Below the pieces are notes generated by a model. The model was not told where the DNA came from, made no database searches, and saw only the letters and a program-made list of their open reading frames with translations. Positions 1-11,971 of a stretch of DNA of 11,971 nt are shown piece after piece. The position numbers and the translations under genes were made by a program. The stretch lies in the IMG/VR virus record IMGVR_UViG_2778261454_000011, positions 1 through 11,971 of that record. One strand, 5' to 3'. The stretch comes from a virus (taxonomy: Duplodnaviria; Heunggongvirae; Uroviricota; Caudoviricetes). Every line of letters starts with the position of its first letter. Within the stretch, counting starts at the first letter, position 1.

Positions 1-112
1 AACTGAAGTTGCCCTGAAAATGAAATTTTTTTGCACAACCGCAGAACTTTTCCGCAGGGCATCAGTCTTAATTAGTGCCACTGCTTTTCTTTGATGTCCC
101 CATTTTGTGGAG

Positions 113-155
113 CCCATCAACCCCGCCATTTCGGTTCAAGGTTGATGGGTTTTTT
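113..155 (+). terminator. Rho-independent terminator-like hairpin (CCCATCAACC ... GGTTGATGGG followed by TTTTTT)
   Basis: A 10-bp perfect inverted repeat at 113..122 and 140..149 is followed by a T6 tract at 150..155 on the + strand. It may mark the 3' end of a flanking host transcript or sRNA just outside the prophage end. Confidence 0.4.
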
Positions 156-235
156 GTTGCCTGAAATTTATGCCTTTTAAAATCATGATGTTAGAAGCAG
201 TGTTTTTTAACGATGGCGACAAATTGGCGGCAGAG

Positions 236-454
236 TCAAAGAGAGAGCGCCACCTGTCCTGATTTCATTGGATGCGGCTGAACCGGATTTGACTCTTTTG
301 GCGTTGCAATCGAACGAACAAAAGTTTCATGGGTAACAAAAGTATGGCTGCAGTTAATGTTCTGGCACTGGTTGTAACGCTCTTTGGTCAATGAAGATAC
401 CTGAAAACTGCTGCGAGTATGGGCGGCACTTCCACACAGTGGGCAAATCATCAT
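236..454 (-). CDS. ogr: Ogr/Delta-family zinc-finger late-gene transcriptional activator
   Basis: A 72-codon ORF starts at ATG 454..452 and translates to MMICPLCGSAAH...YNQCQNINCSHTF, with the C-x2-C ... C-x4-C spacing and size of P2 Ogr. It sits at the end of the element directly downstream of the D-like ORF, as in P2. The longer track ORF starting at 487 has no homology support for its first 11 codons. Confidence 0.85.
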   Translation of the reverse strand: MMICPLCGSAAHTRSSFQVSSLTKERYNQCQNINCSHTFVTHETFVRSIATPKESNPVQPHPMKSGQVALSL

Positions 455-544
455 TTTTCGAGTTCTCCCCATTTTTGCTAAATTCACAATAATGATACCG
501 CATTATTCCATTTTGAAAACTTAAAAGTTCTCCATTGCGAAGAA

Positions 545-1162
545 TCATTCAATTTCGAAATCATCAATCTTCACTTCAAGCTCCAGACTGGTCGTAAAAC
601 CGTTATCCGGGCTGACAGTATGCGTCAGGGTGGTAATGGTCCATTCCGCATCATCTATCGGCTGTTTAAAGCCACTGACCTTCACAGGCATTTCCGTGTA
701 GAGATCTGCCCGACCTTCTGCCAGTTGTAGCGAGAATGACGCAACGCCGCGTTGCAGGCGTTCCCACTGCATTTTCGCCGCTCGTTCGGCGTTGCTCCGG
801 TTGGCATAAGTGCGATTAAGTACCAGCACGTTTTCATCCGTACCCACCAGGTAATCGCCCTGCTTCGCTTCCGGCTCTTTCTTCTGCTTCTTAGTCCTGC
901 GCTTACGCTTCACCGTGGTGCTTTCTTTCTTCTCGGGTTCCAGATTGCCGCCCAGACTCAGCAGCACCACCTGCTCACCTTCCGATGGTCGCCACCATGT
1001 GCGGGCATTACCCGCGCGCAGCGTCAGCCAGTTAATCCAGTTGGTTTCAAGGTCGCCCGTTTTCACCCGACAAAGCCAGTGTTCCCGGTCCACTTCGGTG
1101 ACTACACCAGTGCGGATCAGGTTGGTGATAAGGCGCATGATTTCGGTTAATTGTGCGTTCAT
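545..1162 (-). CDS. Chimeric tail ORF: baseplate spike gpV N-terminal domain fused to a probable late control gene D C-terminal fragment
   Basis: The N-terminal ~75 aa (LIRTGVVTEVD...CRVKTGDLETNWINWLTLRAGNARTWWRPSEGEQVVLLSLGGNLE) match the gpV N-terminal domain of P2 as recalled. The rest follows a K/R-rich linker and does not resemble the gpV C-terminus. Its position immediately upstream of ogr is where the 3' end of D lies in P2. At 205 aa it is far too short for an intact D. Confidence 0.55.
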   Translation of the reverse strand: MNAQLTEIMRLITNLIRTGVVTEVDREHWLCRVKTGDLETNWINWLTLRAGNARTWWRPSEGEQVVLLSLGGNLEPEKKESTTVKRKRRTKKQKKEPEAKQGDYLVGTDENVLVLNRTYANRSNAERAAKMQWERLQRGVASFSLQLAEGRADLYTEMPVKVSGFKQPIDDAEWTITTLTHTVSPDNGFTTSLELEVKIDDFEIE

Positions 1163-1262
1163 AATTTAATCATGCCGAGATAAGATTGATAAAAAAACTC
1201 TTTAGTTTTGTGCCAGTTATGATACAAAGTGCATTTACTCATGGACTAAATAAAGGATTCCT

Positions 1263-2522
1263 ATGTTTAGATTATCTAGTGTCAAGATTGAAGGTTTTTG
1301 GGGAAGACTAAATGCATCATGTTCATTTAATGAAGATGTAAATATTATTATTGGTCGAAATGGGACCGGTAAAACAACCTTTATGAATATTCTTCACTCA
1401 GTTCTGGCATTAGAACTCGAATCACTAAATGAGAATAGTTTTGATAATGTAACAATAAAAATAAAAGAAGGAAGCAAAACTAAAACAATAAAAGTTGTGA
1501 GTAAATTTGACATAACTAAAGCTTTGCCTACGTTTGAATATACAATTTCTAGAAAGAAATATATTATCAGATCCTTTGAAGATCGTAGACTACCTATATA
1601 TATGAGGAGAAAATATCAGGAAGACGTTGAAAAACTTAAGTTAGAGTTAGATAAATTAGTTGCTTTATCTTCTCTATCAGTTTACCGACTTAGAAGCGGT
1701 GAAGATTTTGAAATCAGAGACAAATATGGCTCAAAATTAATCAACCCTGTTGATTACCGATTAGAACAATTATTGCAGAACCTAACAAAATATCAACTTT
1801 ATTTATCACAAAGAGCTCGTGATGTTTCTGCAATATTACAGAAAGAGGTTCTTGCTTCTATTCTTTATAGTAAAGAAGATGGTATCGATGACACATTTAA
1901 CTTTTCTTTTGATAAAGAAAAAGAACGTAGAAATTTAATAGCTGCATATTCTCAGCTTGGAGCTTTTGATAGTGATGTCAGAAAGAAGATTAACTTTCAC
2001 GTTGAATCTATTGCCAATACATTTGAAGAATTACGACTTGCAGAAAAAAATAACAGAAATATTTTAAATGTAGATTACAGATCATTTGAGGCATTACGAA
2101 AGACGCAAAGAATTATAAAGATGTCTTTAAAATCCGAGGAGAAAATAAAAAACATATTTCTTCCTATAAATCTATTTTTAGAAACATTACATGAGTTCAT
2201 AACCGATAAAAAATTTAATTTTATCTCCGGTGAGTTAGTAATAGAAAATGAGCATGGGCCGATTAGCCATAGTAATTTATCGTCTGGTGAAAAACAGCTA
2301 TTAATTCTTTTTATTGAAACTTTGCTACAGCAAAACAAACCTTTCATCTATCTTACTGATGAACCAGAATTATCGCTACATATTGCATGGCAACGAAAAA
2401 TAATACCTGCAATCAAACAACTTAATCCTAATGCGCAAATTATCGCCGCTACGCATTCACCAGAAGTGGCTTCTAAATATCGAAATGCAATCTTTGATAT
2501 GGAGAAATTGGTTCATGGATGA
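1263..2522 (+). CDS. ariA: ABC-type / AAA_15-AAA_21 family ATPase, PARIS AriA-like
   Basis: A 419-aa ORF with an AAGGA ribosome-binding site 7 nt upstream. It carries Walker A GRNGTGKTT (K37), an ABC-signature-like LSSGEKQ, Walker B FIYLTDEPELSLH and an H-loop AATHSPE. The region is strongly AT-rich compared with the flanking phage genes. Its stop overlaps the start of the next gene (ATGGATGA). Confidence 0.7.
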   Translation: MFRLSSVKIEGFWGRLNASCSFNEDVNIIIGRNGTGKTTFMNILHSVLALELESLNENSFDNVTIKIKEGSKTKTIKVVSKFDITKALPTFEYTISRKKYIIRSFEDRRLPIYMRRKYQEDVEKLKLELDKLVALSSLSVYRLRSGEDFEIRDKYGSKLINPVDYRLEQLLQNLTKYQLYLSQRARDVSAILQKEVLASILYSKEDGIDDTFNFSFDKEKERRNLIAAYSQLGAFDSDVRKKINFHVESIANTFEELRLAEKNNRNILNVDYRSFEALRKTQRIIKMSLKSEEKIKNIFLPINLFLETLHEFITDKKFNFISGELVIENEHGPISHSNLSSGEKQLLILFIETLLQQNKPFIYLTDEPELSLHIAWQRKIIPAIKQLNPNAQIIAATHSPEVASKYRNAIFDMEKLVHG

Positions 2523-3366
2523 TTTCCATTATTCTGCCGAAGCAGAAAATGTAATGAATTTATTTTACCAAGCTGAAGCCATGGTTTATGTTGAAGGCCC
2601 AGATGATATTTGCTTTTGGGAAATCATCTTTAATAAAGCTAGTTCATTAAAGGTTGAAATCAAAGATGTTGGCGGCTGTGAAGAATTAAAAAAATATATT
2701 GATAGAGTTACTGATGAAGATCTTCAAATTATAATTGCATGTGATGCAGACTTCACTACATTTGAAAATGAGGAAAACGCTGATAGTCGTATTGTAAAAA
2801 CTTATGGGCACTCCATCGAAAACACGTTTATTGACAAAACAGGCATATATAAGGCAATAAAAACTCTCGGAAAATTACCTCAAAAGATAATGAACGATGT
2901 CAACGTCGATTCTTGGACAGAAGACTTTTATACCAAAATGGACCCCCTAATAAAACTTGATATATACAATCATATTTATAGAAAAGGCATTTCAGTTATT
3001 GGTGACAGTGCAGATCGTTTCATGAAATCTAGAAAATCAAATGAAATTTGCGAGCAAAAAATCACGAGTTACAAAAACACCATCATTGAAAAATTAGGTG
3101 TGGAATCAGATAACATCGATTCATCTTTCAAATCAAAATCGATAGAATACAGAAAGTGGCTTAGAGGTCATTTTCTATTTTCTGCAGTACATAGGTACAT
3201 TAGCACAACTGCAGAAAAAAATGGAAAAAAAGTATCCTTATCATATGAATCATTATATTCCAATTTAATGAATACATTTGAATCCAATTTTACCAATACT
3301 CATATTGAGTTTAATCATTACCACGAAAAAATTAAAGCCATAAATATGCCACACGAAATGAAATAA
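2515..3366 (+). CDS. ariB: DUF4435 / TOPRIM-like nuclease partner, PARIS AriB-like
   Basis: A 283-aa ORF starting at ATG 2515 with a GGAG 7 nt upstream, overlapping the ariA stop by 8 nt. Conserved acidic motifs VYVEGPDD (E27), IIACDADF (D-x-D) and YGHSIEN fit a TOPRIM-type catalytic core. It has the same AT-rich composition as the ATPase gene. Confidence 0.65.
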   Translation: MDDFHYSAEAENVMNLFYQAEAMVYVEGPDDICFWEIIFNKASSLKVEIKDVGGCEELKKYIDRVTDEDLQIIIACDADFTTFENEENADSRIVKTYGHSIENTFIDKTGIYKAIKTLGKLPQKIMNDVNVDSWTEDFYTKMDPLIKLDIYNHIYRKGISVIGDSADRFMKSRKSNEICEQKITSYKNTIIEKLGVESDNIDSSFKSKSIEYRKWLRGHFLFSAVHRYISTTAEKNGKKVSLSYESLYSNLMNTFESNFTNTHIEFNHYHEKIKAINMPHEMK

Positions 3367-3367
3367 G

Positions 3368-3390
3368 AAAAAATACAGATGTATTTTTAT
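3368..3390. terminator. AT-rich hairpin between convergent ariB and gene S, possible bidirectional terminator
   Basis: AAAAATACA..TGTATTTTT inverted repeat lying between the ariB stop (3366) and the S stop (3392). The stem is A/T only, so it is weak. Confidence 0.25.
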
Positions 3391-3391
3391 A

Positions 3392-3838
3392 TTATTTAGA
3401 TAACCATTCAAATAGGGTATCCTTGATTTGATAATATTCTTTATCGTGGATACCCAATAGCTTACGCTCTGCGTAACGGACCTCAGGTCCTTTGCGACTG
3501 ACGCGATCACGCAGGCCGTAGTGATGAACGCGGGCAATGCGCTGCACCTTGCCTTCAAACTGCACGCTGGCAGAATCGGCGCTGGCGGCAGTTTTCAGGT
3601 ATTTTGTGGTGCGCAGCTTCGCAAACATCTGACGTTTGATGCGCCCCTTTTTGCTGCGTGCTGTTACTCTGCGCGGCTCATAACTGCTGCCATCTGGATT
3701 GCGCTGCATCCTGATGTTCTGCTGCTGTGTCCGGCGCAGTTCCTGCGCCAGCTGGCGCATCATGCGGCTTCTGGCGGCTGGCTCCAGATTCGCCAGCAAG
3801 GCACTCAGCCAGTCGTCCACTTTCTGCAGTTCAGCCAC
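3392..3838 (-). CDS. S: Phage tail completion protein S (P2 gpS family)
   Basis: A 148-aa ORF, MAELQKVDDWLSALLANLEPAARSRMMRQLAQELRRTQQQ..., matching the P2-like gpS virion morphogenesis family. It overlaps the upstream R gene by 8 nt, as in P2. Confidence 0.8.
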   Translation of the reverse strand: MAELQKVDDWLSALLANLEPAARSRMMRQLAQELRRTQQQNIRMQRNPDGSSYEPRRVTARSKKGRIKRQMFAKLRTTKYLKTAASADSASVQFEGKVQRIARVHHYGLRDRVSRKGPEVRYAERKLLGIHDKEYYQIKDTLFEWLSK

Positions 3839-4262
3839 GTTTTACCGTCCACATTTCTTCAGGTTCATCGGGTTCCGCTACCGCTTCAACACTCGACACA
3901 CTGCCGTCAGTGCTGACAAGCACACGCTCCGTCAGTTGCAGGTTCAGGCTGATATCACAGACATCGTTGCGCAGAATATCCACCTCAAAGGTGAATAGTT
4001 TTTCCCGTAACGTCGGGTTATTGATGGCATCAGGCTGGTTATCCCGCAGCCACAGCAAAACCGGGGCCATCAGCAGATTCTGGTCGCCGCTGAAATCCTC
4101 AATCACCACGTTCAGGGTGTAGCGGTACTCCCATGACATGGAGCTGGTCCCCGTGGCAACCAGCGAACCGTTATCCACAAACAGATGCAGTTTGTCCGGG
4201 TTATTGCGGACATAAGGCACCGCTTTATTGAGGGCGCGGCGCAGGGATTGTGGTTTGTTCAC
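3831..4262 (-). CDS. R: Phage tail completion protein R (P2 gpR family)
   Basis: The translation ...KPQSLRRALNKAVPYVRNNPDKLHLFVDNGS...LLWLRDNQPD... aligns with P2 gpR. The start is set at GTG 4262..4260, which is preceded by AGGAG with 7-nt spacing and matches where P2 gpR begins. The track ORF extends to a TTG at 4283. Confidence 0.75.
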   Translation of the reverse strand: MNKPQSLRRALNKAVPYVRNNPDKLHLFVDNGSLVATGTSSMSWEYRYTLNVVIEDFSGDQNLLMAPVLLWLRDNQPDAINNPTLREKLFTFEVDILRNDVCDISLNLQLTERVLVSTDGSVSSVEAVAEPDEPEEMWTVKRG

Positions 4263-4515
4263 TGTTTCGCTCCTGACACGCAATAATCATGTCCACTTTG
4301 TCTGCACAGGCCGCCCAGGCGGCCTCCGTTTCGTCCAGCAACGCGTTCAGATCACCGTTAGTGTGCGGCGCCGCCTGATCCAACCGACACGGCGTCACTC
4401 GCGGACAACCACTGACGGTAAGCTGCACCTCCGGTGAGTGTCGGACGTTTCCGCAGCCGGATAATGTCAGCAGGCAAAGGAGTATCAGCCCAGCGGCGTA
4501 AATCCTCGTTCTCAC
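4225..4515 (-). CDS. lysC: Outer-membrane spanin lipoprotein (LysC / Rz1-like)
   Basis: The ORF lies in an alternative frame overlapping the 3' part of lysB and the start of R. Its N-terminus MRTRIYAAGLILLCLLTLSGC has a signal peptide and an L-S-G-C lipobox. The GTG start is uncertain. Confidence 0.55.
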   Translation of the reverse strand: MRTRIYAAGLILLCLLTLSGCGNVRHSPEVQLTVSGCPRVTPCRLDQAAPHTNGDLNALLDETEAAWAACADKVDMIIACQERNSEQTTIPAPRPQ

Positions 4516-4786
4516 GTTTCAGTTCCTCGATCCGGTGTTGTCGTTGTCTCAGCAGCGCGCTGGTCTGTTCTGCTTCGGCATAGAGCCGCGCCTGCTCCCG
4601 GTTATTGGTTTCAGTCAGAATGGACAGGCTGATAAGCTGGCTGTTGCTCTTTGCCAGTGCCTGGCTTTTGCTCTGCAGCTCGTCTGCCTGCGTGCTGATG
4701 GTCTGGCTGGCATCAGCCAGCCGCCACGTCTGCCAGCCCAGCACCGCCAGTAATAACGCCAGCATAACCAGCAGCAACCGGTTCAT
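4358..4786 (-). CDS. lysB: Inner-membrane spanin (LysB / Rz-like)
   Basis: A 142-aa ORF with an N-terminal transmembrane segment (MNRLLLVMLALLLAVLGWQTW) followed by a Q/E/R-rich coiled-coil-like region. Its ATG overlaps the lysA stop. Size and position match P2 lysB. Confidence 0.7.
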   Translation of the reverse strand: MNRLLLVMLALLLAVLGWQTWRLADASQTISTQADELQSKSQALAKSNSQLISLSILTETNNREQARLYAEAEQTSALLRQRQHRIEELKRENEDLRRWADTPLPADIIRLRKRPTLTGGAAYRQWLSASDAVSVGSGGAAH

Positions 4787-5160
4787 GCTGCTACCTGTTG
4801 CGCCATCTGATTACGGGTGATCCAGAAGGCAATAACGGTCAGCAGATAAAAGACCAGGGTAATAGCCCACCCCGTCCAGGCGAGACTGACGACAATCAGC
4901 ACTCGCATCACCCAGCTGATAAATACGTTTTCTTTTCGGGTAATTGTCTTCAGCAAAGATGCCCTCAACTCCTGCCAGAGCGAGCCATTCTTAATTAACG
5001 CAGCCAGTGCTACCGGAATTACCGCCCATGTCAGTAAACAGGCTACCCAAACGCCGGACGCTGCCAGTACCGGAAAAATCCCCTGCGGATACACCATTGC
5101 TGCAATTAACAGCGCCATCCATAACATCAGAAACAGCCCGCTGATTAATTTCTTTTTCAT
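4783..5160 (-). CDS. lysA: Membrane protein LysA-like (lysis timing accessory)
   Basis: A 125-aa ORF starting at ATG 5160..5158 (MKKKLISGLFLMLWMALLIAA...) with several hydrophobic helices, lying immediately upstream of lysB. The longer track ORF to 5310 is a read-through extension antisense to the terminase fragment. Confidence 0.6.
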   Translation of the reverse strand: MKKKLISGLFLMLWMALLIAAMVYPQGIFPVLAASGVWVACLLTWAVIPVALAALIKNGSLWQELRASLLKTITRKENVFISWVMRVLIVVSLAWTGWAITLVFYLLTVIAFWITRNQMAQQVAA

Positions 5161-5179
5161 TTCAGTTTGCTCCCTGTAA

Positions 5180-6388
5180 ACACCAGGCCATCTCCCGCGC
5201 ACGGCGGTTAAGGCACAGGCCCACGTCTTTAAGCAGTACATCATCGACTTCGCCAAAGAAGTGGAGGTGGAGCTGAAAGGCGATCCGATGGTGCTTCCCA
5301 ACGGGGCCACGCTTTACTTCCTCGGCACCAATGCCCGCACGGCCCAGAGTTACCACGGCAACCTGTATCTGGATGAATATTTCTGGATACCGAAATTCCA
5401 GGAGCTGCGCAAAGTGGCTTCCGGTATGGCTATTCACAAAAAATGGCGACAAACCTATTTTTCCACGCCATCCAGCCTGACACACAGTGCTTATCCGTTC
5501 TGGTCCGGTGCGCTGTTCAACCGTGGGCGCAACAAAGCCGATAAGGTGGACATCGACCTGTCCCACAGCAATCTGGCCCCCGGCCTGCTGTGCGCAGACG
5601 GGCAATACCGCCAGATAGTCACCGTGGAAGATGCGGTGCGCGGCGGCTGTAACCTGTTCGACCTTGACCAGTTGCGCATGGAGTACAGCCCGGACGAATA
5701 CCAGAACCTGCTGATGTGCGAGTTTGTGGACGATCTCGCGTCCGTGTTCCCGCTCAGCGAGCTGCAGGCGTGCATGGTAGACAGCTGGGAAGTCTGGACT
5801 GACTTTCATGCACTGGCCCTGCGCCCGTTTGGCTGGCGCGAAGTATGGATCGGTTATGACCCGGCGAAAGGTACGCAGAATGGCGACAGCGCCGGATGCG
5901 TGGTGGTGGCACCGCCAGCCGTGCCGGGCGGCAAGTTCCGCATTCTTGAGCGTCACCAGTGGCGCGGAATGGACTTTCGCGCCCAGGCTGACGCCATCAA
6001 AAACCTGACCGAACAGTACAACGTGACCTACATCGGCATCGACTCGACAGGTGTCGGCCACGGGGTTTACGAGAACGTGAAAGCGTTTTTTCCAGCCGTC
6101 CGGGAGTTTGTCTACAACCCCAACGTTAAAAACGCCCTGGTACTCAAGGCCTACGACATTATCAGTCACCGCCGTCTGGAGTTTGACGCCGGACACACCG
6201 ACATAGCGCAGTCATTTATGGCAATCCGTCGCGCCACCACCGCCAGCGGCAACCGCCCGACCTATGAAGCCAGCCGCAGCGAAGAAGCCAGCCATGCCGA
6301 TCTGGCCTGGGCAACCATGCACGCACTGTTTAACGAACCGCTGCAGGGCGAGTCCGCCAATACCAGCAATATTGTGGAGATTTTTTGA
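5180..6388 (+). pseudogene. P: Terminase large (ATPase) subunit gpP, N-terminally truncated fragment
   Basis: The open frame begins just after a stop at 5177..5179 with no start codon. Its translation (...KAQAHVFKQYIIDFAKEVEVELKGDPMVLPNGATLYFLGTNARTAQSYHGNLYLDEYFWIPKF...) matches the central and C-terminal parts of P2-type terminase P. About 400 aa remain against roughly 590 for intact P, and the fragment abuts lysA on the opposite strand with about 20 bp between them. Confidence 0.7.
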
Positions 6389-7413
6389 TGGGAAAGAGTA
6401 AGAAAAAACGCGCTGCGGCGACGAATCAGATCCAGCATAAAAACCAAACTTCAGCCGAAGCATTCAGCTTCGGTGATCCCGTTCCTGTTCTGGACCGCCG
6501 CGAACTGCTGGACTATGTGGAATGCGTACAGATGGATCGTTGGTATGAGCCGCCTGTGAGTTTCGACGGACTGGCGCGAACCTTCCGCGCCGCCGTGCAT
6601 CACAGCTCACCGATTGCAGTGAAGTGCAACATTCTGACCAGCACCTACATCCCTCACCCGCTGCTCAGCCAGCAGGCTTTTTCGCGTTTTGTGCAGGACT
6701 ATCTGGTTTTTGGTAACGCCTACCTGGAGAAACGCACGAACCGCTTCGGTGAAGTTATCGCCCTTGAGCCTGCACTGGCAAAATACACCCGACGCGGGTT
6801 AGACCTGGATACCTACTGGTTTGTGCAATACGGTATGACAACCCAGCCGTATCAGTTCACGAAAGGCAGCATCTTTCATCTGATGGAACCCGATATCAAC
6901 CAGGAGATCTACGGCCTGCCCGGTTATCTTTCTGCCATTCCGTCAGCTCTGCTCAACGAGTCCGCCACGCTGTTCCGACGCAAATATTATATTAATGGCA
7001 GCCATGCAGGATTCATAATGTACATGACCGATGCCGCTCAGAACCAGGAGGATGTGAACAACCTCCGCAACGCGATGAAAAGCGCCAAAGGGCCAGGCAA
7101 CTTCCGCAACCTGTTTATGTACTCGCCTAACGGCAAAAAAGACGGGCTTCAGATCATCCCATTGTCAGAAGTCGCGGCGAAGGATGAGTTTTTGAATATC
7201 AAAAATGTTAGTCGCGATGACATGATGGCGGCACACCGCGTGCCGCCGCAGATGATGGGGATTATGCCTAATAATGTTGGGGGATTTGGGGATGTGGAGA
7301 AGGCAAGCAAAGTGTTTGTGCGGAATGAGTTAATGCCATTGCAAAAGAATTTTGAATCACTGAATAACTGGGCTGGAAAAGAAATTATTTCATTTAATGA
7401 CTACTGTTTTTAA
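6388..7413 (+). CDS. Q: Portal (capsid) protein gpQ
   Basis: A 341-aa ORF starting at ATG 6388 with GGAGA 8 nt upstream, overlapping the P stop (TGATG). Size and position downstream of P match P2 portal Q. Confidence 0.75.
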   Translation: MGKSKKKRAAATNQIQHKNQTSAEAFSFGDPVPVLDRRELLDYVECVQMDRWYEPPVSFDGLARTFRAAVHHSSPIAVKCNILTSTYIPHPLLSQQAFSRFVQDYLVFGNAYLEKRTNRFGEVIALEPALAKYTRRGLDLDTYWFVQYGMTTQPYQFTKGSIFHLMEPDINQEIYGLPGYLSAIPSALLNESATLFRRKYYINGSHAGFIMYMTDAAQNQEDVNNLRNAMKSAKGPGNFRNLFMYSPNGKKDGLQIIPLSEVAAKDEFLNIKNVSRDDMMAAHRVPPQMMGIMPNNVGGFGDVEKASKVFVRNELMPLQKNFESLNNWAGKEIISFNDYCF

Positions 7414-7442
7414 GAAAATGCGCATGGAAATTTTCATGCGCA
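7411..7442 (-). terminator. Rho-independent terminator hairpin downstream of the RT gene
   Basis: An 8-bp stem TGCGCATG (7419..7426) pairs with CATGCGCA (7435..7442) around an 8-nt loop. On the - strand it is followed by TTTTCTT. It lies between the convergent Q and RT genes. Confidence 0.45.
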
Positions 7443-7448
7443 CACACG

Positions 7449-8378
7449 TTATTCTGATACTTCAGGTTGATATCTCTGGATTTCATCAATCAGCTCTGAT
7501 GAATATTTCGCACAAAGCCTATTAATAAATAATGGCTCAACACTTTTGCAATACGATAAATATCCTTGAAGAAATAGCCTTTTCTTCTCATCAAGAGCCT
7601 CCCATTTAAAAATAAGCGATTTAACCATCCTTTTTTTATCTCTCCCTAAGGATACTCCACCATCTGTTGTCAAAGTCACACCCGTAACCATCATTTTATT
7701 TTTCTTTGACATATGCAGTGTCTTTTTTCTATTAATCCATAGTTTTGATGGGTATTTTAAAGTTTTTAAATTCGAGCGTAAAAAAGGTGGTATTTGCTTC
7801 AATACATTTTCTTCGTTTGTTGAGAAGTACATATCATCAGCATAGCGTGTATATGTTACACCTTTTGAAAGACAAAATTCATTCAATATATGATCTAATT
7901 CATAGCATATAGCATTGCTTACCACAGGGGAACTAACAGCACCCATAGTCAGTCTCCCGTTAAAGCATACTATTTTTACCAGCAAATCAGTATCATCCTT
8001 TGACCAATCATCACTGAAGAAATGCTTGTTGTCGTTTATAAATCTCTCAACATCACTTTTCTTAATTGAATCAAAAAAACCTTCAAAGTCCATCTTAAGC
8101 ATAAAACGTTTAGCTTTGTGAATGCTTGCATGTTTGAACACTGATGAACCCTGCTGATATGCTACAGCATTTGGATGAATCGGCAATTTCGACAGAACAT
8201 TATCATGAAGTAATCTCTGCAAAACTTTTAATTCTTTAGAGGGCTGATAGACGATTCTTGTCCCACCGCCTTTTTTAGGTACAGAAAATTTACCATAATG
8301 CGAGTTAGCATCATTTGCAACTTTTAATATAAAATCAGCTTCTAACAGTAAAACTTTAGCTAGATACTCAATTAACAT
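7449..8378 (-). CDS. Retron-type reverse transcriptase
   Basis: A 309-aa ORF with RT motifs: IVYQPSKELKVLQ (finger region), KMDFEGFFDSI (motif A), YTRYADDMYFS (Y-x-D-D catalytic motif C) and a VTG triplet (MMVTGVTL) typical of retron RTs. Its ATG lies 1 nt after the stop of the upstream ORF. Confidence 0.8.
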   Translation of the reverse strand: MLIEYLAKVLLLEADFILKVANDANSHYGKFSVPKKGGGTRIVYQPSKELKVLQRLLHDNVLSKLPIHPNAVAYQQGSSVFKHASIHKAKRFMLKMDFEGFFDSIKKSDVERFINDNKHFFSDDWSKDDTDLLVKIVCFNGRLTMGAVSSPVVSNAICYELDHILNEFCLSKGVTYTRYADDMYFSTNEENVLKQIPPFLRSNLKTLKYPSKLWINRKKTLHMSKKNKMMVTGVTLTTDGGVSLGRDKKRMVKSLIFKWEALDEKKRLFLQGYLSYCKSVEPLFINRLCAKYSSELIDEIQRYQPEVSE

Positions 8379-8379
8379 A

Positions 8380-8622
8380 TCACATGATCCTTTCTAATTC
8401 TGCTTTGAATTTAGATATCATTATTAAATCGGATAATGATCTAGCTCTACTTCGTTGAATACTTTCAACTAAATCTTTCATCTTTTCATGATTAAAAAAT
8501 TTAATATAATCGACACATGAATAATGGGTCACGCCCTCAAATCGACTTTCCTTAAAAATCCCAAGAGCAACTCCAATAGAAACAATAAATGAAATATTTT
8601 TATTAATTTTATAATTTATCAA
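8380..8622 (-). CDS. Small ORF in frame with the upstream effector ORF (possible C-terminal effector fragment with a hydrophobic segment)
   Basis: An 80-codon ORF with a TTG start. It is in the same reading frame as 8665..9432 and separated from it by 14 sense codons and a single TAA. It contains the hydrophobic stretch ISFIVSIGVALGIF. Confidence 0.35.
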   Translation of the reverse strand: MINYKINKNISFIVSIGVALGIFKESRFEGVTHYSCVDYIKFFNHEKMKDLVESIQRSRARSLSDLIMISKFKAELERIM

Positions 8623-8664
8623 CCTGCCTGTGATATTAAATATCTCAGGAATTGTTATTGTACA

Positions 8665-9432
8665 TTAAGAAGATATAAGAACGAGAACAATAAATAATAT
8701 TATTTTTGGTGATTTTTTGTAATCTCCTATTGAATTTGTATTAGTTATGTTTGATTGAACTTTCCTATTTAGCCTTTCATTTATTTTAGGCATACACGTT
8801 AAAATTGTCTCAAATTCAGTATAGATTGTAGGGCCAAATTTGGATTCACTATCAACCCATTTTACGGGCCCTGTATTGATAAATGACTTATGACTTTCAA
8901 ACTTTTTATCTAATATAGGAAGAAGTTTTTTACGTAAAACAGGACTTAATGAAAATGCGCCCAATTCAGCTACAGTGCCATAACTCTCTACGAGAATAAT
9001 TACCACATCAGAAAAATCCGCAAGCCATTCTTCAAGTGATAACGCATTCACATTACTATGAGTTCCTAAATTGCTAATTACTTCCCATGCTAATTCTGCT
9101 CGAAAAGTAACAAATTCTTTATGATGCTTAGCAATATATTTTTCCAGCACCCCTCTATTTGAACAATAAGTCTCATCTCCTCCACAAATAAATAATACTT
9201 TTGGCAGGATATAATTAAAAGAATTCAAGTTACTTGGAAAAAAACTTGAAATAAAATTTTCTTTTGCTCGTAAATATCTAGGATGTTTAAACCACATAAC
9301 AATTAATGCCCATACAAGAGTTCCCGAGACACAAGTTAGCCTGGTGTCTATAAATGACACAAGGCTAACTTGTGTCGAGATACCAAGCAATCCATACGAG
9401 TTGGCTAAACACCAACCACTAGAAAGTAACAT
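8665..9432 (-). CDS. Retron effector candidate with a nucleoside 2-deoxyribosyltransferase-like (NDT-like) domain
   Basis: A 255-aa ORF carrying ...KVLFICGGDE... and ...VVIILVESYGTVAELGAFS..., which resemble the NDT-family motifs including the D/E-x-G-T-x-x-E-L-G catalytic region. The ATG at 9432 is preceded by AGGAAAG. It ends in a hydrophobic tail (KIILFIVLVLISS) followed by TAA. The start codon is uncertain. Confidence 0.55.
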   Translation of the reverse strand: MLLSSGWCLANSYGLLGISTQVSLVSFIDTRLTCVSGTLVWALIVMWFKHPRYLRAKENFISSFFPSNLNSFNYILPKVLFICGGDETYCSNRGVLEKYIAKHHKEFVTFRAELAWEVISNLGTHSNVNALSLEEWLADFSDVVIILVESYGTVAELGAFSLSPVLRKKLLPILDKKFESHKSFINTGPVKWVDSESKFGPTIYTEFETILTCMPKINERLNRKVQSNITNTNSIGDYKKSPKIILFIVLVLISS

Positions 9433-9455
9433 ATTGAATGTACTTTCCTGCTAAG

Positions 9456-9700
9456 GGCACAGCTAGGCTAGCACTAACATACGGATTATTCAAGTGAATG
9501 CAGCTCAGCGCGCGCTCGTATCCCCGCCACGCCTGCCCGCTTTATGTAGTGGTTTTCATGCAGGTGCATGATCTACGCAAAAGCCCGCCAGTTCTGGCGG
9601 GCCTTAGCAAAAACGATCCTCAAACGATCATGCAATCTCATGCAGCATAGACATGCACAGACGAGTAAAGCGAATCGGACTTTACGCAAGGTGAACTCCT
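9456..9700 (-). ncRNA. Candidate retron non-coding RNA (msr-msd) region
   Basis: A non-coding stretch upstream of the effector and RT operon that is dense in nested inverted repeats: TGCATGATC / GATCATGCA arms (about 9558..9660) enclose a GCCCGCCAG-N4-CTGGCGGGC hairpin (9584..9605), and a 12-bp palindrome CAGCGCGCGCTG lies near 9506..9517. An 8-9 bp inverted pair TGCTAAGG / CCTTAGCA near 9604..9612 and 9456..9464 could be a1/a2-like flanking repeats. The boundaries are not defined. Confidence 0.35.
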
Positions 9701-9874
9701 CAGCGGGTATAATCAGTATGTCGGAAAATCTCTAAAAATAAATAATTCGGTTAACAGGTATGCTTACAAAAGCATATATTTGATTAAAAATCATGTAAGG
9801 GGGAGGATCTCAAACTGAATCGCCACGGTTTTACAAATTTCGATAGTCTCTCTAACGTTTCGGCTGAGGTCAAA

Positions 9875-10300
9875 ATGAAAAGCTTTTACGTATTAATTTT
9901 AATTCTGGTTGCAAGCTTTGTTAGCGTCCCAGTTCAGGCGGTAACAGCTAAAAACTATGAGAAAGGAACTAAAGCTCAACAGAAATCAATATCTTACCTT
10001 TCATGTGCATTCTATGGCAGTAGCACACAATTAGATCCTAGCTACACGGGGCAAGTACCTACAGCCGATATCAAGATATTACAGAAAGCAGCTTACCACG
10101 CTTACAACGATGCGCTCTCATACTTTGGCTATGAGGAACCAGATCACGAACAACGCATAATTGATTATGCTGAATTTGTGGCGTCGCAAGAAGCTGTGTT
10201 ATGGGATAAGCCGGGAATGAATGGAAAGCAGGTAACACTAATTGCTCGTTCTCTCTACAATGAGAGTAACTGTAACTTGTTACTGGACTCAATTAAGTAG
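9875..10300 (+). CDS. Secreted or periplasmic protein of unknown function (signal peptide)
   Basis: A 141-aa ORF with GAGG 6 nt upstream of the ATG. The N-terminus MKSFYVLILILVASFVSVPVQA-VTA is a typical Sec signal peptide with an A-x-A cleavage site. I recognise no family for the mature part. Confidence 0.6.
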   Translation: MKSFYVLILILVASFVSVPVQAVTAKNYEKGTKAQQKSISYLSCAFYGSSTQLDPSYTGQVPTADIKILQKAAYHAYNDALSYFGYEEPDHEQRIIDYAEFVASQEAVLWDKPGMNGKQVTLIARSLYNESNCNLLLDSIK

Positions 10301-10459
10301 GAAAAAGATGGTATTTTGCCCGTAGTTTCAACCTTAATCTCCGAACCTGTCGCAGAACGGGCATTCACTCATCAAATAAACGCCACACCTAACGCCTCAC
10401 TGTACTCGTTGTTCAACCTTGCTGACGCCAGAACCAAGTTCAGACGCCAGCAACTTTTC

Positions 10460-10693
10460 TTAATGCAGCCAGCTGTCGTCTTCCCACACCTTCTGCATAA
10501 TTTTCATCACTTGTTTTCTTTCTTCGTCCAGTTGCAGTCCGGTCAGTTCCACACCGTTAGAGCTACCTTTGCGGATGCGAATTACCGTTTTGGGATACAG
10601 GGGGCGCAGATTGCGGTAAAGCTCTGATTCAAGGGCGTCCAGGGTAGACTGGCTAATCTTCTGCTCTTTATCGATCATTATTTCAATGCGCAT
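10460..10693 (-). CDS. dinI: DinI-family protein (SOS-associated RecA modulator homolog)
   Basis: A 77-aa ORF from ATG 10693..10691 with GAGGTG 6 nt upstream. The translation MRIEIMIDKEQKISQSTLDALESELYRNL...VMKIMQKVWEDDSWL aligns along its length with E. coli DinI (MRIEVTIAKTSPLPAGAIDALAGELSRRI...ILQETWESADDW). The track ORF start at 10765 is an unsupported extension. Confidence 0.75.
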   Translation of the reverse strand: MRIEIMIDKEQKISQSTLDALESELYRNLRPLYPKTVIRIRKGSSNGVELTGLQLDEERKQVMKIMQKVWEDDSWLH

Positions 10694-10703
10694 AAAAGTC
10701 ACC

Positions 10704-10892
10704 TCAACTGATGACGTCCATTGAGCGGTTGTATTCGTGAGTTCTGATTTTTGCCATGAGTTCATCAGTCAACTCAGAAACCCACTGCAGAGCCAGCCCC
10801 TTCTCTTCATCACTACACTCACTAGCCGCTACAAGCTTAAGAAAAAAATCAATGCGCTGGAGCTTCAAAGACTCCAAAAAATAGTCCTGCAT
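10704..10892 (-). CDS. Hypothetical 62-aa protein, first gene of a LexA-box-controlled operon
   Basis: A strong AGGAGG 4 nt upstream of ATG 10892. It ends 11 nt before the dinI-like start and lies directly downstream of the LexA boxes. No family was recognised. Confidence 0.5.
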   Translation of the reverse strand: MQDYFLESLKLQRIDFFLKLVAASECSDEEKGLALQWVSELTDELMAKIRTHEYNRSMDVIS

Positions 10893-10917
10893 CTTTCCTC
10901 CTATGACACCAAAACAA

Positions 10918-10950
10918 TACTGTATATATAATCACTGTTTATATTTACAG
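10918..10950. promoter_or_regulatory. LexA (SOS) operator: one consensus box plus an overlapping half-site
   Basis: CTGTTTATATTTACAG at 10935..10950 is a perfect CTGT-N8-ACAG SOS box with an AT-rich spacer. An overlapping TACTGTATATATAA left half-site lies at 10918..10931. Both sit in an AT-rich promoter-like region upstream of the orf62 and dinI-like genes on the - strand. Confidence 0.65.
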
Positions 10951-11212
10951 TATATAATAATCTTACTGATGTAAAACGTTTTTTTACGTTCATCAGCCTG
11001 ATATACCTGGTATTATTAAGAGCACGAATTGTTAACCCGCGTAATTAATACAGCTCCCGCCACTTATCATCTTCCTGCAAACGCTGGTTCCGATAGAAGA
11101 TACGCAGGCCTGCTCCTGACGGAATACTGCCGCCGCGAAGGAGTAAATCGACTTCTTTCTCGCTGCCATCAAATCCTCTGGACTTCAGTTCATAGACGAG
11201 CTGCTGTCGCTG

Positions 11213-11971
11213 ATGGTCTGTAATCCCCTTGCAACCGATCTCACATCTAAAATGTTTGCCCATTATCGAGATAAACGACTGACAGGTGAGATCTACTTCA
11301 GCGAGAAATGGAAGAAAGGGGCCAGCCCGGTCACCATTAACCTGGAGCAAAGCTATCTAAGTAGTGTTTTTAGCGAACTATCCCGCCTGGGCGAATGGTC
11401 GTATCCAAACCCACTGGAGAACATGCGAAAATTCACCATCGCAGAAAAAGAGATGGCATGGCTTACCCATGAGCAGATTGTTGAACTGCTGGATGATTGC
11501 AAACGTCAGGACCCAATTCTGGCACTGGTAGTCAAGATATGCTTAAGCACAGGCGCACGCTGGCGAGAAGCAATAAACCTTACCCGCTCACAGGTGACCA
11601 AATACCGAATTACCTTTGTCAGAACGAAGGGGAAGAAAAACAGAAGCATCCCTATCAGTAAAGAGCTTTACGAAGAGATCATGGCGCTCGATGGGTTCAA
11701 TTTCTTCACAGACTGCTATTTTCAATTTTTATCCGTGATGGAAAAAACGTCTATCGTGCTCCCTCGCGGTCAACTGACACACGTTCTGCGCCATACGTTT
11801 GCGGCGCATTTTATGATGTCGGGTGGAAATATCCTTGCTTTGCAAAAAATCCTCGGACATCACGACATAAAAATGACTATGCGTTACGCACATCTAGCAC
11901 CGGATCACCTGGAAACTGCATTACGGTTTAATCCGCTGGCAACACTACCAACATCAATAGCAAGTTTTTGA
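11213..11971 (+). CDS. int: Tyrosine recombinase / P2-type integrase, catalytic C-terminal part (N-terminus missing or frameshifted)
   Basis: The translation contains the catalytic signature of tyrosine recombinases: ...[11 protein letters not shown]... (Arg), ...[17 protein letters not shown]... (His-x-x-Arg), ...[15 protein letters not shown] (His, Tyr). It aligns with the C-terminal roughly 240 aa of P2 Int as recalled. The frame has an in-frame stop at 11144 and no arm-binding N-terminal domain. It runs to the window end at a TGA. Confidence 0.75.

Follow-up and report, generated by a model that had tools for sequence, protein, structure and literature searches.

A divergent PARIS-family gene pair, very probably an abortive-infection system, in the orf30 slot of a P2-like prophage

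This analysis concerns a two-gene cassette in an 11,971-nucleotide stretch of viral DNA (Caudoviricetes; IMG/VR record IMGVR_UViG_2778261454_000011, positions 1 to 11,971), which for the sake of simplicity will be called the window. Positions 1263-3366 of the window very probably hold an abortive-infection system of the PARIS family (AriA/AriB), which makes up the AT-rich cargo of the orf30 slot in a P2-like prophage. The cassette is a divergent PARIS clade, i.e. a known system in a known cargo slot, and the current understanding of PARIS and of P2 is unchanged by it.

Assignment to the PARIS family

The first gene (ORF1, ariA-like) encodes an ABC/SMC-type ATPase of 419 amino acids, and the second (ORF2, ariB-like) a predicted DUF4435/TOPRIM nuclease of 283 amino acids when counted from the ATG at 2515 (open frame as listed, 2431/2515-3366). 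The ATG of ariB overlaps the GGA TGA end of ariA, and an identical 8-base overlap geometry was found in the homologue pairs of Cronobacter, Yersinia and Shewanella. Judged from this arrangement, ariA and ariB form an operon in which translation is probably coupled. The GC content is 0.31 at 1232-3391 versus 0.54 at 545-1162 and 0.55 at 3392-5200, and the cassette genes run on the plus strand whereas the phage genes on both flanks run on the minus strand. The original prediction, made from the letters of the window, had described two overlapping intact genes in an AT-rich cassette opposite in strand to its flanks, and in both respects the open reading frames and the base composition (31% versus 54-55% GC) agree with it.

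Comparison with the PADLOC profiles gave AriA (PDLC04164) as the best match of ORF1 (5.8e-40), followed by PtuA and mad3 at about 1e-21 to 1e-23. In the case of ORF2, the matches at E <= 0.01 were limited to AriB (7.7e-25 and 1.4e-9) and the fused AriAB model. At E <= 10, a limit at which the HMMER filters discard most matches above about 0.1, one extra family appeared, mad4 at 0.037, bringing the total to four families. In Pfam, ORF1 scored 82 bits against AAA_21 (cut-off 27) and 65.3 bits against AAA_15 (cut-off 32.1), and ORF2 scored 92.6 bits against DUF4435 (cut-off 27). The published detection rule for PARIS consists of AAA_15 at 32 bits or more, or AAA_21 at 27 bits or more, adjacent to DUF4435 at 27 bits or more (Rousset 2022, PMC9122126), and the ORF1/ORF2 pair is detected as PARIS under it. 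The profile matches foreseen in the original prediction (AAA_15/AAA_21 and DUF4435) were thus obtained, and its call of PARIS stands. Because the Pfam scores exceed the cut-offs and the same DNA occurs at 99.6-99.8% identity in 18 other genomes, the pair is not a product of chance.

A sequence search of the Protein Data Bank (PDB) with ORF1 returned AriA (8ux9/8v45) first at 1.3e-16, with the runner-up at 6e-8, and the alignment spans both halves of the ATPase head. Additionally, both proteins were modelled from alignments of their homologues. The AriA fold stood 7 Z units apart from the next ATPase fold. The ORF2 model reached a predicted local distance difference test score (pLDDT) of 92.1, and its best Foldseek match was the AriB chain 8ux9_A (E 2.2e-5, probability 1.00, template modelling score 0.50, 16% identity), with OLD nucleases as second-best folds. 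The tie of ORF2 to AriB runs solely via the DUF4435/AriB profiles and the fold. Altogether, sequence and fold comparison indicate that both proteins are whole-length homologues of PARIS components, and the closest sequence or structural relative of each is the respective solved PARIS protein. We consider membership of the PARIS family highly probable.

Annotation pipelines miss the system because the RefSeq names are generic ('AAA family ATPase' and 'DUF4435 domain-containing protein') and NCBIfam is without a model for both genes: ORF2 had no match in NCBIfam, and ORF1 had matches far under the cut-off only, the best being PtuA at 65 bits versus a cut-off of 500.

The combination of an AAA_15/21 ATPase with a TOPRIM nuclease is common to several systems (PMC11464382), and the cassette could accordingly be a different OLD-like system, akin to AbiL, MADS3-4, Gabija or P2 Old, having only the domain pair in common with PARIS and a nuclease that attacks DNA and not tRNA. 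The PtuA and mad3 matches of ORF1, the OLD nucleases among the folds of ORF2 and an identity between ORF2 and AriB of Escherichia coli B185 below 20% would fit such a system. However, ORF2 matched no AbiL or OLD model in PADLOC at E <= 10 and reached mad4 only at the E value given above, the AriA fold is well separated from other ATPase folds, and two genes with DUF4435 correspond to the published definition of PARIS (PMC9122126). We regard this explanation as improbable. Among the systems named, the AbiLi/AbiLii pair of Lactococcus resembles the cassette in joining an ABC/Rad50-like ATPase to a TOPRIM/OLD-like nuclease, and its phenotype is abortive infection. It differs in that ORF2 matches the DUF4435 and AriB models, and AbiLii is without detectable sequence similarity to AriB according to a 2026 review. 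The AbiL-like alternative offered by the original prediction was rejected on the latter ground and on the lack of any AbiL match of ORF2 in PADLOC at E <= 10, the presence of an AbiLii model in PADLOC-DB 2.0.0 being unchecked. P2 Old and GajA of Gabija (class 1/class 2 OLD nucleases) also pair an ATPase with TOPRIM, and P2 Old is likewise carried as P2 cargo, but in these proteins the two parts are fused in one polypeptide that acts on DNA.

Catalytic residues and proposed mechanism

The characterised PARIS system of E. coli B185 resides on a P4-like satellite (Rousset 2022; Burman 2024; Deep 2024; PDB 8UX9, 8V45-8V49). Like the present cassette, it is a two-gene operon in which an AAA_15/21 ABC ATPase precedes a DUF4435 TOPRIM protein, it has the Walker A lysine, the Walker B glutamate and the TOPRIM pattern E…D…DxD/E…E, and it is the AT-rich cargo of a mobile viral element.

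The ATPase motifs (K37, LSSGEKQ, DEPE, H-loop) and the TOPRIM core (E27, CDAD) on which the original prediction was built are all present. In a 30-sequence AriA alignment, the invariant positions comprise G31-F40 (minus R32 and T35), L339-L346 (LSSGEKQL), D366-I374 and H398, whereas D365, counted with DEPE, falls outside these columns. Similarly, E27, D31, D77, D79 and E102 are invariant among 33 homologues of ORF2 with 28-70% identity. These five residues mirror E26, D30, D88, E90 and E122 of B185 AriB, a correspondence based on motif order and spacing and not on residue-level superposition; in B185 they form the two-metal TOPRIM site, and E26A abolishes defence (Burman et al., PMC11464382). 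Regarding the ATPase, K37 and E367 are the equivalents of K39 (Walker A) and E393 (Walker B) of B185 AriA, as the motifs align in the phmmer alignment, and both B185 residues are needed for defence (PMC11464382).

Comparison of the cassette genes with homologues gave ratios of nonsynonymous to synonymous substitution rates (dN/dS) of 0.04-0.19 where dS was calculable, dS being saturated in half of the comparisons, and these ratios can be taken as a rough sign of purifying selection. The homologue searches yielded more than 4,800 relatives of the ATPase versus 51 AriB-like proteins, and the ATPase is consistently better conserved than its nuclease partner.

By analogy with B185 (PMC11464382, PMC12409363), AriA would use ATP, through K37 and E367, to form a scaffold, a hexamer in the PARIS model, that keeps AriB monomers inactive. 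A phage protein, which in B185 is the DNA mimic Ocr, would then bind AriA in an ATP-dependent manner, and AriB would be set free and dimerise. The two-metal TOPRIM site of AriB (E27, D31, D77, D79, E102) would nick host tRNA in the anticodon stem-loop, so that translation halts and the infection aborts. That this detailed mechanism applies here seems to us somewhat better founded than its opposite. Cleavage of host tRNA with arrest of translation is known for B185 only, where the targets are Lys-UUU, Thr-UGU and Asn-GUU (PMC11464382, PMC12409363), and both the trigger and the tRNA set of the present clade may differ from those of B185. A divergent, prophage-borne PARIS clade could be of use for testing the variation in trigger and tRNA specificity among members of the family.

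A different role for the same two proteins would be that of an addiction module, in which AriB as toxin and AriA as antitoxin mainly stabilise the remnant and do not primarily defend against phages. 'Antitoxin' is the label given to AriA by the PDB depositors, the 2026 review classes PARIS as a type II toxin-antitoxin system, and the cassette outlived three deletions that took about 60% of the prophage. Nevertheless, the authors of PARIS considered a toxin-antitoxin system excluded (PMC9122126), AriB alone needs activation through AriA (PMC11464382), and a 2-kb block surviving in one remnant is an anecdote. Such a role is very unlikely in our view, and abortive infection by a PARIS system is the preferred reading.

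Divergence from B185 and expression signals

Several observations weigh against this assignment or against a direct transfer of the B185 model. The identity to the B185 PARIS proteins is 16-19%, and AriB was not found in the PDB at E <= 1, neither by a single-sequence phmmer search with ORF2 nor with a 33-sequence profile. AriA has 419 residues here versus 464 in B185, i.e. it is 45 residues shorter. At the AriA-AriB interface, the arginines R28 and R31 in helix α2 of B185 AriB, which dock on AriA (PMC11464382), are absent, and the positions with the same offset from E27 hold P29 and I32, so that conservation of this contact does not extend to the single residues. In PARIS as a whole, ariA and ariB co-evolve in 11 clades, between which the pores that sense the trigger show poor conservation (PMC11464382). 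The replaced docking residues fit this clade-wise co-evolution, and because of the same clade structure and poorly conserved pore residues the trigger and target of B185 are not transferable to this cassette. Finally, a consensus scan detected no sigma-70-like promoter at 1163-1262, the 100 nt upstream of ariA. The length of AriB differs as well, with 283 residues here versus 305-306 in B185.

The missing promoter consensus leads to the possibility that the cassette looks intact but is silent or inactive in this host, a relic whose promoter or partner functions disappeared together with the other parts of the prophage. The neighbouring retron effector of the same remnant is indeed broken by a stop codon, and PARIS-1, one of the characterised PARIS systems, was active only from an artificial promoter (PMC9122126). 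Against this, a consensus promoter scan is a weak test, and both open reading frames are full length. The intact prophage of E. coli EC21Z-063 has a copy with the same AriA and with an AriB that differs by one change, E143D, which bears out the earlier description of the cassette as one of the few intact modules of the remnant. The upstream region is also kept as far as the V start codon: the block 934-5210 that contains it shows 7 mismatches to the intact prophage. We judge a silent relic to be very improbable, and continue with the reading of an intact PARIS cassette.

The promoter and terminator scan of 1000-3600 reported fewer sites in total than were found in shuffles. A perfect 9-bp, AT-rich inverted repeat, read from the sequence, lies in the 25-nt gap left between ariB and S, whose stop codons converge. 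It may act as a weak bidirectional terminator; the terminator scan of the same region, which required at least 3 G-C pairs, does not report it.

Position in the orf30 slot

In the GenBank entry of P2 (AF063097), orf30 is annotated as 'nonessential' and on the opposite strand, with the O-operon terminator on one side and the V-promoter activator site on the other. It belongs to the three typical regions in P2 that harbour morons, namely the TO region (tin/old), orf30 and Z/fun (PMC6823313; PMC3091744). The present cassette has the characteristics of the orf30 slot, as it is flanked by the S stop codon and the V late promoter, is antisense and is foreign in composition. P2 orf30 shares with it the position, the antisense orientation to the tail genes, the low GC content and the dispensability for the phage, but it is a single 261-residue protein without a Pfam or PADLOC match, versus a recognisable two-gene defence system here. 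The location also differs from that of B185 PARIS, which resides in the psu-int hotspot of P4.

These data correct the original prediction in two points, since S and V are not adjacent in P2 but separated by the annotated orf30 (AF063097), and the S/V junction is not a third, new insertion site, being already occupied by orf30 and counted among the three moron regions. Its statement that cargo is usually found at two loci agrees with recent defence papers (A-Q, Z/fun) but not with the older P2 literature, which has three regions. In the recent hotspot papers, Rousset covers A-Q only, Vassallo A-Q and Z/fun, and iLund4u A-Q, Z/fun and a third hotspot beside CI. A rearrangement that placed the cassette at S/V was also considered and is ruled out, as intact prophages carry the cassette at the same place.

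The borders of the exchanged unit were delimited by comparing the window with loci whose S/V interval is empty or differently filled. The similarity ends at 1163, next to the V start codon, and restarts at 3465. Because of these two breaks, the exchangeable module includes the final 24 codons of S as well as a V-promoter region of its own. Across loci, the last ~24 codons of gpS (3392-3464 in the window) and the dyad upstream of V vary together with the cargo, so each cargo module supplies a different S C-terminus and a variant of the V promoter.

The sequence TGT-N12-ACA is the consensus for P2 late promoters. Such a dyad is present at 1209-1226, only 36 nt from the ariA ATG, and its distance to the V start codon matches that of the annotated P2 activator site (10239-10266 versus a V start at 10308). 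Comparable dyads occur in empty and in other occupied S/V sites. This fits the activator (Ogr) site of the V late promoter, and the dyad is a phage feature outside the defence operon.

Distribution of the cassette and survey of the slot

The cassette is present in 18 of 5,426 complete E. coli genomes at 99.6-99.8% identity, always chromosomal and in a single copy, and those E. coli genomes that were inspected have it in a full P2-like prophage, with V and S as its neighbours. The phage record vB_EcoM-813R9 also has it in the S/V slot. More distant homologue pairs were detected in the same slot of P2-like prophages in Cronobacter and another E. coli (AriA 79%, AriB 64% identical), adjoining CI, the repressor of a P2/186-like Yersinia prophage (65% and 44%, respectively), and on a Shewanella chromosome.

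For the survey of the slot, the 80 IMG/VR loci with the closest gpS relatives were sampled, and the S-V interval was measured in the 79 that also carry V. The interval is empty in 61 of these, leaving a gap of 62-65 bp with only the TGT-N12-ACA dyad. The remaining 18 hold inserts of 0.8-2.2 kb with 31-34% GC and of 10 kinds, and in 15 of them, likewise in P2, the cargo is antisense to the tail genes. The present PARIS pair is the cargo of two contigs (L004, L005). Other inserts encode an AIPR/AbiU-like protein (1.6e-25 and 1.7e-24), an ApeA-like protein (1.4e-13), a DUF6216 membrane protein, a weak HNH match and a 503-residue P-loop protein, and one complete E. coli genome has a GmrSD gene at the S/V position. 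Cargo proteins of 481, 503, 304, 250 and 245 amino acids had no significant match in PADLOC or Pfam. The cargo of the S-V intervals in the loci L010, L018, L035, L016, L015, L082, L081 and L090, and the ApeA-like, AIPR/AbiU-like and GmrSD proteins, are candidates for unexplored defence genes.

The most useful by-product of the analysis is this evidence that the orf30 slot, outside the coverage of the hotspot surveys, carries defence cargo together with uncharacterised candidates, and unannotated cargo at this place is a cheap source of candidate defence genes. More tentatively, and with doubt prevailing over confidence, we propose that the slot could be a third true defence hotspot of P2-like phages overlooked by recent surveys. 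In this proposal, recombination within the S 3' end and at the start codon of V would exchange whole modules, each with its own Ogr-dependent V promoter, and the resident PARIS clade (AriB less than 20% identical to B185 and without the known docking residues) would respond to a trigger that is not Ocr or cut another set of tRNAs.

The prophage remnant and its other modules

Table 1. Coordinates of features in the window (a point in the strand column marks a feature without strand).
Feature	Position	Strand	Description
RybB small RNA gene	80-158	+	Rfam RF00110, 105 bits
ogr gene	236-487		
V::D fusion ORF	545-1162	−	205 aa (amino acids); gpV N-terminus (Phage_base_V, residues 17-75) and gpD C-terminus (Phage_GPD), in frame
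Deletion junction	933/934		V-to-D, creating the V::D fusion ORF
Exchangeable module	1164-3464	.	blastn of the window against loci L008, L013, L035, L081
TGT-N12-ACA dyad	1209-1226	−	centre 55.5 nt upstream of the V start codon (1162)
ariA-like gene (ORF1)	1263-2522	+	419 aa, ABC/SMC-type ATPase, full length
Walker A GRNGTGKT	1353-1376	+	ORF1 residues 31-38; K37
Signature LSSGE	2277-2291	+	ORF1 residues 339-343; extends as LSSGEKQ
Walker B LTDEPE	2352-2369	+	ORF1 residues 364-369; D366, E367
H-loop ATHS	2448-2459	+	ORF1 residues 396-399; H398
ariA/ariB overlap	2515-2522	+	ATGGATGA
ariB-like gene (ORF2)	2515-3366	+	283 aa, DUF4435/TOPRIM nuclease (predicted)
YVEG	2593-2607	+	ORF2 residues 25-28; the position given is that of E27 to D31
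CDAD	2743-2751	+	ORF2 residues 76-79; the position given is that of D77 to D79
SIEN	2818-2820	+	ORF2 residues 100-103; the position given is that of E102
Inverted repeat	3369-3388	.	AAAAATACA GA TGTATTTTT
gpS	3392-3838	−	
gpR	3831-4283	−	
Deletion junction	5209/5210		about 4.7 kb missing: endolysin gene, then Y, X, L, M, N and O, and the 5' part of P
Type II-A retron	7449-9432	−	RT_II-A 5.8e-105, then NDT_II-A effector 2.4e-44
Retron effector gene	9432→8380	−	350 aa intact in EC21Z-063 (St85-family)
Loss of similarity	11224		just before the integrase ORF (11213 onward)

The window is a deleted derivative of the E. coli EC21Z-063 prophage, to which the blocks 934-5210 and 5209-11224 match at 99.7-99.8%, and it has lost most of the prophage genes through three deletions (Table 1). 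A second defence module, the type II-A retron, sits beside the portal gene Q in the classical A-Q (tin/old) hotspot, and in the intact prophage RefSeq labels it 'retron St85 family'. Scans for Rfam families and tRNA genes reported RybB only, and no Rfam family was found for the presumed msr/msd RNA.

Within the retron effector, the segment 8640-8725 carries 14 substitutions in 86 bp relative to EC21Z-063, versus 9 mismatches in the remaining ~10.2 kb of shared DNA. The allele was absent from the complete E. coli genomes (best 94.4%) and from the viral contigs searched, and a nearby template repeat, as a diversity-generating retroelement would have, was not found. Nine of the 14 substitutions are A→T on the plus strand and there are no insertions or deletions. 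One substitution makes a TAA stop codon, by which the effector is split into open reading frames of 255 and 80 amino acids.

At the other end of the window, the presence of RybB at 80-158 suggests that the left end may be host chromosome, with the prophage boundary between 158 and ogr. A part of the window is matched by almost every E. coli genome, which the RybB region may explain.

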